Part shown: positions 21,001 to 24,000 of the stretch, one piece after another
How the letters are laid out: each line of letters begins with the position of its first letter
Numbering within the stretch: the first letter of the stretch is position 1
NCBI GenBank assembly: GCA_963793305.1
Contig: CAWBZV010000005.1
Location: 1,056,001 to 1,120,000, forward strand
Reading direction: 5' to 3'
DNA: 64,000 bases
Source: an uncultured Gemmatimonadales bacterium
GTDB lineage: Bacteria > Gemmatimonadota > Gemmatimonadetes > Gemmatimonadales > Gemmatimonadaceae
Made by a program: the position numbers

Positions 21001-24000
21001 ACCTTCGGTGGGAACGATCCGATCAACGCCGCGGATCCGACCGGCACGTGCGCTTACTGGATGGGTGGGGTCTTGGACAACGCGCCCGTGTTCAGCACCG
21101 GTCATGACCTCAGAGGTGACAACTTGATCTGCAGCGGAAGTAGCCCCTCGGATCCTTGGGTGACCTACATCCAACAGGTGAACGTGACGGCGCCCGCGCC
21201 GATCGCGCCGTCCGACCCGTGGATGGGCGTATCCGCAACGTATACCAACAGCGGGTTCCAGGTGATGGCCGTGCCAGGCTTGGGCAACGTCCACAGTGTC
21301 GATCATGCGTGGAACTTCAACAAAGACTGCGCGATGGCGTTGGGAGCGTTCGCGGCCGTTGCCGCTTCGGACGCGCTGATCGCCGCCAAGGTTGCCAAGA
21401 TCTTCCCGCTGGCATGGGAAGCCGCCAAGTTTGGAACGGCGTCGACGTTAGCTAAGCCGCTCATTTCGGGAACCGCGGCGACCGCCAGACTCTCTCGCGT
21501 GCTCGGCGCGGCGTCGATGTCGTACGCGACGTTGCGTGACGTGCATCTGACGGCCGATGGCCTCGAGTACTTGAATGGCTTGCAAGTCAGCGGCGGGGGG
21601 TCGAACGTGAATGACTTGGGGGATGTGCTCATGCACATCACGCCGTTCTTGGATCTCAAACCGGCCATGGACGACGCCAACGCATCCTGCCAGGAAAATC
21701 AATGAAACAACCAGAGGGAGAGCCGGCCCCATCGCAATGGATGCGGGACCTGCGTTGGGGAGCTGCGATCGGACTCTTCGTGGGGACCGTGCTCTCCCTC
21801 TGGGTCTGTGCGGTTTCCTTAACAACCGGCAGGACGGAGTTCCCGCGGCTGGGAATGAGCCTCGGAGCCGTGGTCGCCTTTTACTACTTGGGTGCCCTGA
21901 TTGTCGGCCTGATCATCGGCCTGCTTCGGCCAGCGACGCGGACCGCATTCGGCGCCATGGCCGTCGGCGTCATCGCCGGGCTGCCGGCGGGAGCGTTGAT
22001 GGACATCTGGACCTACACCGGCCCGCTGACAGGTTGGTTCGAGGCGCGCTGGTGGTTCCCGGTTGTCGTGAGCCTGGCCGTCGGTGCGCCGGCGGGCTAC
22101 ATGATTTGGCGCCAGAATCGCTCGGGATGATAGACCAAGGATAGGGATGTCGGCCCCGGGCCGCGCCTGCGCCATTATCCCTAGGTGCCCACTGAAGCCC
22201 AATCCCTCGGCCTACTCTCGCGGGATTCGAAGTCCTCGATGACCTTCGCGGACCAAAGCAGCCAGAATTCCGGCTCGACCGGTCTTGTGACCGAGCCAAT
22301 GTAGTGACGAGATCGCTCGACCCGACATTAGGTGGCGCATGCCCCTGCCTTCGAGTTCGTCACTCCATTGTGAGGTCATCCCATTCGCTCACTTGCCGAT
22401 TTCATCGAATCGACATTCTTCGAAGCCGTATTCATTCCCGTCCTCGTCGTGTGCGTCGGTATTGCCCTTCGCTTGCTCAGCATGCGATCCGATGATCAAC
22501 GTCGGCCAGTCGACGCGTATGCTGCTGGCTGGGATCTCATGGTTGCGGGATCCGTGCTGGCGTGCGAGACGCTCTTTCAACTCCTTCGGTGCTCGCATGA
22601 ACCGGGCATTCCCAACCCGTTCTGCGCTCGGTATTCGCGAATGGCGAGGGCCGCGAACGTGACATCCGATGAGTATGTTACACTCAGCATCGGCTTCTTT
22701 CTCGTCGTCGCCCTGTTGGCCCTCGTCATAACGAGCCTGGTTCGCAGGTTCGGCTGGAACCGCGATGCCAGAGAGTGGCGACTGAACCGCGTCGGCGTGG
22801 TCCTGCCGTGGATTGGTGGACTGATGGTCGTATTTGGCGTGTTCTACTTGAGGGGCTACTGAGAATGCACGCAAAATCGCGGCGGTTTACTGCCACGCTT
22901 ATTTTCGCGACAGCTGGCTTTGGCCTCGTCGGCCTAACCCTGGCGGTATTCACAATGAACGGCCAGCCGGTGAGCGAGCAGTCACGTCTGTGGTATCTGC
23001 CACTCACAATCGCGGGAGGGCTTCTCGCCGCCGCGATTGTTCGAATTTTTGAGTCCTCTTCCAAGCCCGTCTCCATCTGGGAGCAATATCTCATGGGGAA
23101 ACTTGGACCGGTCGACGACGAGCTGTTGCGTCGTATGACCGAAGAGGTGATGGCAGAACTAGTCGAGAAGCACGGGATGACTCTGGAGCGCGCATCCAAG
23201 CCCGAAGCCGGTAGCGCCCGCACCCCGGCTCAGCCCGATCTGTTCGAGAAATTCAGACGCAACTAACAAGGATGATCCCGTCATGAAGCCGATGACGTGG
23301 TTGCCGAACGCAGTGTTTAGCATCGGGCATGCTCACCGATGCCCAAACCCTCGGCCTCCTCGGCGAACGGATCGCCGCGAAATGGCTGCGGCGCCGCGGC
23401 TGGCGGGTGCTGGAGCATCGGTTCAAGAACGGGCACCGGGACCTGGACCTCGTAGTCCAAAGGGGTAAGACCGTCGCGTTCGTCGAGGTCAAAACACGAA
23501 CCGACCTCTGCTTTGGCGGCCCCGTCAGCGCCGTCGACTTCTTCAAACTCCAGCAGCTACGGCGCTCGGCCGTGGTCTGGATGTCGCGCTACGGCCGATC
23601 CGGCCTGGAATACCGGATCGATGTGGTTGCCGTGTGGATAAGTGGCTGCGATGTGAAAATCTACCATGTGGAAAACGCGCATGTTTTCCACTTGGATGGT
23701 TGATTTTCGCCTGTGCAGTTCGCATTTTGTTCGGGGTATTCTGGCGGCCGCTCGCGATGGGTAGATTTACCCACTCCTACGCGGCCAGGCGTGGGCTCAC
23801 CACCAAAAAAATCGGGCGGAACCAATGGCGGTGTCGACGGCGCAAGATGATCGCAAGAAAGCACTGAACCTGGCCATCGCACAAATCGAAAAGAATTGTG
23901 GAAAGGGCTCCATCATGCGGATGGGCCCCGATGCGCCGCGCATCCGCGTCGAAGCAGTATCGACCGGAGCAATCAATCTCGACGCCGCAATCGGCGTCGG

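Follow-up and report, generated by a model that had tools for sequence, protein, structure and literature searches.

A TTCGG direct repeat as the predicted LexA operator at lexA, recA and mutasome promoters of Gemmatimonadota

The LexA box of Acidobacterium capsulatum is the direct repeat GTTC-N7-GTTC, as Mazon is said to have described in 2006. The same word is given for Alphaproteobacteria in the accessible parts of two papers (PMC3323433, PMC8565304), and those of a third (PMC7739468) cite the Patescibacteria LexA motif (Sanchez-Osuna 2017) among direct-repeat motifs and describe a Balneolaeota direct repeat found by comparative genomics and validated by gel shift. A LexA-repressed sigma factor, SigN of Bacillus subtilis pBS32, is described in the available part of 10.1101/624585. 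The first-pass annotation of the genome studied here held that no SOS box was on record for Gemmatimonadota; we likewise found none in the literature searched, most subscription papers being outside its reach, and the validated-LexA table in the supplement of PMC8565304 has no "Gemmati" entry. We analyzed a window of 64,000 nucleotides from an uncultured Gemmatimonadales bacterium, together with the whole genome and related genomes. The earlier proposal, of a small SOS regulon under a LexA operator, gained support from the sequences of other genomes, and TTCGG-N6-TTCGG (CCGAA-N6-CCGAA on the other strand) is very probably the operator of one LexA, LexA1, throughout the class.

The candidate site in the window, GTTCGCATTTTGTTCGGG at positions 23718-23735, lies about 90 nt 5' of the recA start at 23825, in the gap that begins at the end of a yraN-like gene at 23703; recX follows recA. 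The features are the following.

23329..23703, + strand: yraN-like gene (UPF0102; PF02021), the upstream limit of the recA promoter
23700..23705, + strand: putative -35 hexamer TTGATT, overlapping the stop codon of the yraN-like gene
23719..23734, + strand: candidate LexA1 operator TTCGC-N6-TTCGG, one mismatch against the consensus TTCGG-N6-TTCGG
23723..23728, + strand: putative -10 hexamer CATTTT, between the half-sites and giving the mismatched fifth base of the first one
23825..24880, + strand: recA (TIGR02012, 565 bits, cut-off 325)
24881..25738, + strand: recX, with three RecX helix domains; its true start is probably later than that of the longest ORF

Given their adjacency, recA and recX are likely to share one transcript. 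The operator scored 15.5 bits with a matrix trained solely on the lexA promoters of other genomes. A consensus promoter scan called no promoter at recA of this window, and the -10 assignment therefore rests on orthologs: TAnnnT occupies the equivalent position in nine of 10 family orthologs, and in all 10 family recA promoters TTGnnn stands 16-17 nt ahead of a box-embedded hexamer that starts at the fifth base of the first half-site, which accounts for the mismatch. In this window, too, the recA half-sites straddle the putative -10 element. Taken alone, the motif count of the window is within chance (1 observed, 0.65 expected), so that the weight of the site comes from conservation. The recA of close relatives was covered in four untreated-soil metatranscriptome contig sets, although contigs cannot reveal a start or induction. 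Elsewhere in the window, positions 17827-21705 hold the gene of a 1292-aa Rhs-repeat protein and then a small membrane-protein gene, which together have the usual layout of a putative interbacterial toxin/immunity pair.

LexA1 (g04212, P0001) matches PF01726, PF00717 and TIGR00498 above cut-off, and its Ala-Gly site and Ser/Lys pair align with those of Escherichia coli LexA. Of 151 genomes from the phylum, 147 yielded an ortholog; the tally takes in two unpublished genomes (G055 and G095), on which no other result depends, and the named loci of the closest relatives belong to Gemmatimonadaceae. Within 220 nt upstream of lexA1, exact TTCGG-N6-TTCGG was present at 106 of 106 family loci; five more, from the present genome or the matches closest to it, had been dropped, and the remaining 106 were not de-duplicated, kin among them not being independent. 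The same word stood at all 31 loci from eight further families (137 of 137 in total), which extends the range from the family, as first proposed, to the whole class. Two or more copies were found at 103 of the 106 family loci and 27 of the 31 others. Only the spacer of 6 is conserved, spacers of 5 or 7 giving 0-2 matches, and an unbiased dyad count placed TTCGG-N6-TTCGG at the top in 31 of 31 loci; palindromic or inverted TTCGG/CCGAA arrangements had no exact match at lexA promoters. The assignment to the GTTC-N7-GTTC type did not hold up: the exact word occurs at just 14 of the 137 lexA promoters, and the G preceding TTC, seen in 32 (first half-site) and 97 (second) of 205 sites, is not conserved. 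Outside the class, nine lexA loci from three families lacked the TTCGG box and seven of them carried TTCGC-N6-TTCGC, a pattern no more frequent than its reversed control in two of the other-class genomes.

To predict the regulon, we scanned this genome with a matrix trained without it, on the lexA promoters of other genomes. The top 17 of 42 matches include the sigma/S24 operon, lexA twice, dnaE2, a DUF72 gene, uvrA, a TIGR03916-type radical SAM gene, ruvB, a DUF763 gene and recA, and the radical-SAM-imuA-imuB promoter at C4:65757 was also detected. The six promoter sites that the first-pass annotation had listed from the word [GTC]TTCG-N6-[GCT]TTCGGG were all confirmed.

C5:1079718: box at recA
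C5:1433683: box at lexA (g04212)
C2:636290: box at uvrA
C4:90287: box at the dnaE2-type polymerase gene (g02647)
C3:636458: box at the radical SAM gene (g01627)
C3:159554: box at the sigma/S24 operon

That list is correct in what it names and incomplete, having missed the second lexA box and the radical-SAM-imuA-imuB, ruvB, DUF763 and DUF72 sites. At a threshold of 13 bits that we set for comparisons across genomes, recA has a site in 22 of 25 class genomes and in none of four genomes of other classes (22 of 29 overall), leaving three class genomes and all four others without one upstream; background sites occurred in 20 of 356 windows. The dnaE2/imuAB unit is boxed in 20 of the 23 class genomes having a dnaE2 candidate; the exceptions are G139, G092 and G029, and in the latter two the stretch examined may stop short of the promoter. 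The TIGR03916-type radical SAM gene is boxed in four of four genomes. We rejected uvrA (boxed in 3 of 29 genomes), ruvB (6 of 25) and DUF72 (0 of 3) as core members, and the earlier placing of uvrA in the regulon is thus not borne out by conservation. We predict a conserved core of lexA, recA(-recX), the mutasome (imuA-imuB-dnaE2) plus an SplB-like radical SAM gene, and the radical SAM gene of TIGR03916 type, with the sigma/S24 operon as a conserved accessory member; uvrA, ruvB and DUF72 appear to be patchy, lineage-specific members, and DUF763 is a candidate. The strict pattern gave 45 matches in six other genomes against 1 for the reversed control; of the 45, just 20 lie next to a mutasome or radical-SAM gene, lexA or recA. 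Three genomes that do not belong to the class have dnaE2 on the same strand as lexA and 1-5 kb downstream of it, so that a single box may serve both.

Several other features of the boxed genes were recorded. Likely start codons lie within about 12 nt of the box at dnaE2 (C4:90308), uvrA (C2:636288), the radical SAM gene (C3:636488), ruvB (C5:127770) and DUF763 (C12:119486), which suggests leaderless or very short-leader mRNAs. Frameshifted or fused in the assembly are uvrA (C2:633441-636288), gltX (C2:790053-791523), ruvB/queA (C5:125743-127770) and the SplB-like gene (C4:64704-65740), most likely through assembly indel errors and not as pseudogenes. Among the loci L288, L292 and L298 (G056), L281, L285 and L287 (G059), and L270, L272 and L278 (G140) of other genomes, boxes precede DUF222-HNH genes and a nuclease, which we take to resemble UvrC and which has no Pfam match at 1e-5; repeated boxed elements there may be LexA-controlled DNA of mobile or prophage origin. 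Small proteins follow a boxed promoter in L324, L336, L343, L346, L365, L381 and L394 from metagenomes and in L266 and L299; two belong to the DinB/YfiT family by Pfam and the others look similar, making such proteins a possible recurrent member of the regulon.

The accessory operon combines a sigma factor with a LexA-like protein, and in this genome is laid out as follows.

C3:159632-161124 (L154:632-2124): ECF sigma gene, then the gene of an S24 protein

We detected the S24 protein in 44 of 151 family genomes (~29%). All 30 of 30 loci have an ECF sigma gene immediately upstream of it, and the promoter is boxed in 25 of the 27 loci examined, three others being left out; without the unpublished G341 the counts are 29 of 29 and 24 of 26. 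Residues A123, G124, S158 and K196 are invariant in 26 of 26 sequences. In the predicted model, the C-domain fold matches the C-domains of LexA and lambda repressor and three helices form the N-terminal part; neither a domain search nor the model gave an HTH match. Often a third gene comes first in the operon (phrog_11717; atlas clusters labelled PF27148, L439:136-792 and L440:768-1394). It was not found in this genome, and its product, which presumably resembles phage single-strand annealing proteins, has no solved-structure relative by sequence. The S24 protein may be a RecA-cleavable anti-sigma factor, a kind of system that we did not find in the literature searched, including the accessible part of PMC7406223.

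The last letter of each half-site was found to vary with one residue of LexA. We assembled 166 distinct LexA1-type proteins from a metagenome scan (at least 119 loci), which allowed G or C at the variable box positions, and from genome and viral loci. Among the matches listed, Glu44 goes with a TTCGG box in 133 and Lys44 with a TTCGC box in 31, crossed combinations are absent and two have no exact box. The Lys/TTCGC clusters are named mostly as Acidobacteriota and also as Deltaproteobacteria and Rifleibacterium (an organism name was available for six of 10 proteins queried), and the Acidobacteriota lexA loci sampled carry TTCGC-N6-TTCGC. A Glu/TTCGG protein is named Candidatus Falkowbacteria; two of the 15 matches of the viral scan, mostly unrelated, are this same Falkowbacteria lexA. 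Residue 44 of LexA1 aligns with E45 of E. coli LexA, which, as Thliveris and Mount reportedly showed in 1992, reads the outer C-G pair. E45 is described as a base-contacting residue, and E45K as losing binding to the recA box, in the available part of 10.1101/2020.07.14.201889. A tree with residue 44 masked needs two Glu/Lys changes, a single Glu clade is not rejected (AU test, 30 rows, p 0.27), and in a larger quick LexA tree one change suffices; an independent origin of the Glu/TTCGG state is thus not supported, and the covariation may reflect a single event. The rule allows the way in which LexA changes its operator to be tested with a single substitution. Other residues occur at position 44 too: of the 150 nearest LexA representatives (P0021-P0170), 15 carry Gln, nine Phe, four Tyr and four Ala, and the operators of these proteins could extend the residue-to-base rule.

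This genome has two lexA paralogs, as had been noted, and we consider LexA1 the likely binder of the predicted operator because lexA2 has no box and was not found in 15 of the 29 genomes examined. None of 14 lexA2 promoters is boxed, and all 11 class genomes without a detected lexA2 keep the box at both lexA1 and recA. Binding by another repressor, be it LexA2 (g00815), the S24 protein or an unrelated regulator, seems very unlikely: LexA2 is an intact LexA (TIGR00498, 170 bits) and the S24 protein retains the cleavage site and catalytic pair, but beyond the pattern of lexA2 just given, its helix 3 is distinct from that of LexA1 and conserved, the S24 protein was found in just the minority of family genomes counted above and shows no HTH, and the box letter follows the helix residue of LexA1. 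No motif of its own was found for lexA2, with no dyad in more than four of 14 promoters. In this genome lexA2 (C2:789240-789956) is downstream of gltX, and the match at C2:790338 was rejected as its operator, being coding DNA of gltX with no lexA2 ortholog boxed.

The positions of the predicted LexA1 operator also bear on how it would act. The half-sites form a direct repeat with an 11-bp period on sigma-70-type promoters. At 131 of 141 lexA loci the first box fills the -35/-10 spacer exactly (TTGnnn-box-n-TAnnnT), and the second usually starts 24-28 nt after the first, over the expected transcription start. Such a fixed place between -35 and -10, and the presence of an ECF sigma gene among the boxed targets, would suit a promoter element recognized by an activator or an alternative sigma factor. 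We give this explanation slightly less weight still than binding by another repressor, since ordinary hexamers, TTGnnn and TAnnnT, border the box on its two sides and the position of the box differs by gene, filling the 17-bp spacer, flanking the -10 at recA or covering the transcription start in the second lexA box. In some cases the box runs opposite to its gene (recA in G056 and G080, DUF763, several SplB-like genes), and the sigma factor was found in just three of 151 class genomes by a single query, an undercount given that the same sigma is present in all 30 S24 loci. Overlap with polymerase elements, varying position and either orientation fit a repressor and not a sigma element.

Within this genome, our recount agrees with the nine matches reported for the earlier word and with the three genome-wide matches of the 17-mer pattern T[CT]GG.?ATATCT{1,3}CGG. 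Seven of the nine had been called intergenic: the six promoter sites stand, and the seventh, C2:790338, falls in the anticodon-binding domain of the frameshifted gltX, so that promoter sites make up six of the nine. Our own gene caller also overlooks this piece of gltX and gives seven. The total of nine is ordinary, other spacers giving 6-41 matches, and only the intergenic fraction is unusual (7 of 9, compared with 1-4 at other spacers), with intergenic DNA amounting to 13.9% of the genome by our gene caller instead of the 7% first given. The word itself matches just 39 of the 137 lexA1 promoters that carry TTCGG-N6-TTCGG. The exact consensus occurs 19 times in this genome, 11 times between and eight times inside genes, and a stricter form of the box has six matches, all intergenic. 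As alternative boxes for this genome we rejected GTTC-N7-GTTC (104 matches, 21 intergenic; p 0.047), GAAC-N4-GTTC (p 0.41) and CTGT-N8-ACAG (p 0.23), for which intergenic enrichment was slight or absent. Exact intergenic boxes without an adjoining repair gene lie at C5:237278 (atp operon), C4:3210 (peptidase A4 gene) and C5:1514601 (ABC permease fragment) and are either false positives or unexpected targets. That the motif was first defined and counted on one genome, with an ordinary total and a window site that is not significant alone, might suggest a chance pattern fitted after the fact, a reading with practically no probability left and refuted by cross-genome conservation, with 137 of 137 lexA1 promoters elsewhere boxed, next to no matches for the spacer and reversed-pattern controls, and repair genes of this genome recovered by a matrix built from others.

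In the mechanism that we propose, a LexA1 dimer on the box would block RNA polymerase, and upon DNA damage RecA filaments would induce LexA1 to cleave itself at Ala84-Gly85 by means of Ser119/Lys156, freeing the genes. The imperfect recA site probably has a lower affinity for LexA1, and basal recA expression would thereby be possible. Glu44 of helix 3 would read the outer C of CCGAA and Lys44 would read G instead, giving TTCGC boxes; the Glu/Lys difference would then be nature's equivalent of the E45K mutant of E. coli. LexA1 would further repress the ECF sigma/S24 operon in Gemmatimonadaceae, the three-helix N-terminal part of the S24 protein would hold the sigma factor inactive until RecA-triggered self-cleavage, and the cleavage would turn DNA damage into a sigma switch. 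The joint reading, a second tier of the SOS response through sigma/S24 together with residue 44 setting the operator letter across several phyla, is tentative and in our judgment falls somewhat short of an even chance. If it is true, SOS boxes of uncultured lineages would be predictable from the LexA protein, and an anti-sigma factor cleaved through RecA, should it exist, would wire the SOS response in a novel way.

The box and its regulon provide a testable DNA-damage operator for an abundant, barely studied soil phylum. Since direct-repeat LexA boxes are already known, the box alone is a moderate result, and the parts most worth testing are the Glu/Lys rule and the candidate RecA-cleavable anti-sigma factor. 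Compared with SigN, the sigma gene is likewise under a LexA operator; the available part of 10.1101/624585 describes no S24-peptidase partner, whereas the Gemmatimonadota sigma gene is followed by one throughout the loci counted above. The Balneolaeota system resembles ours in having a direct-repeat operator identified by comparative genomics and in including lexA, recA, translesion polymerases and a radical SAM gene; its sequence is unrelated, and its validation by gel shift contrasts with a Gemmatimonadota box predicted from sequence. The lexA of Candidatus Falkowbacteria (Patescibacteria) agrees with ours in the word, in promoter geometry and in having Glu at the helix position, and its LexA and LexA1 are 40% identical; the operator is probably shared with Patescibacteria, and if the published motif of that group is identical, the TTCGG word is already in print for another phylum. 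With the boxes of Alphaproteobacteria and Acidobacterium capsulatum, the Gemmatimonadota box shares the direct repeat, the 11-bp period, the TTC core and a regulon of lexA, recA, mutasome and radical SAM genes, and it differs in that the G before TTC is not conserved and GG or GC after it is. The Gemmatimonadota box is a variant of the known direct-repeat LexA boxes.
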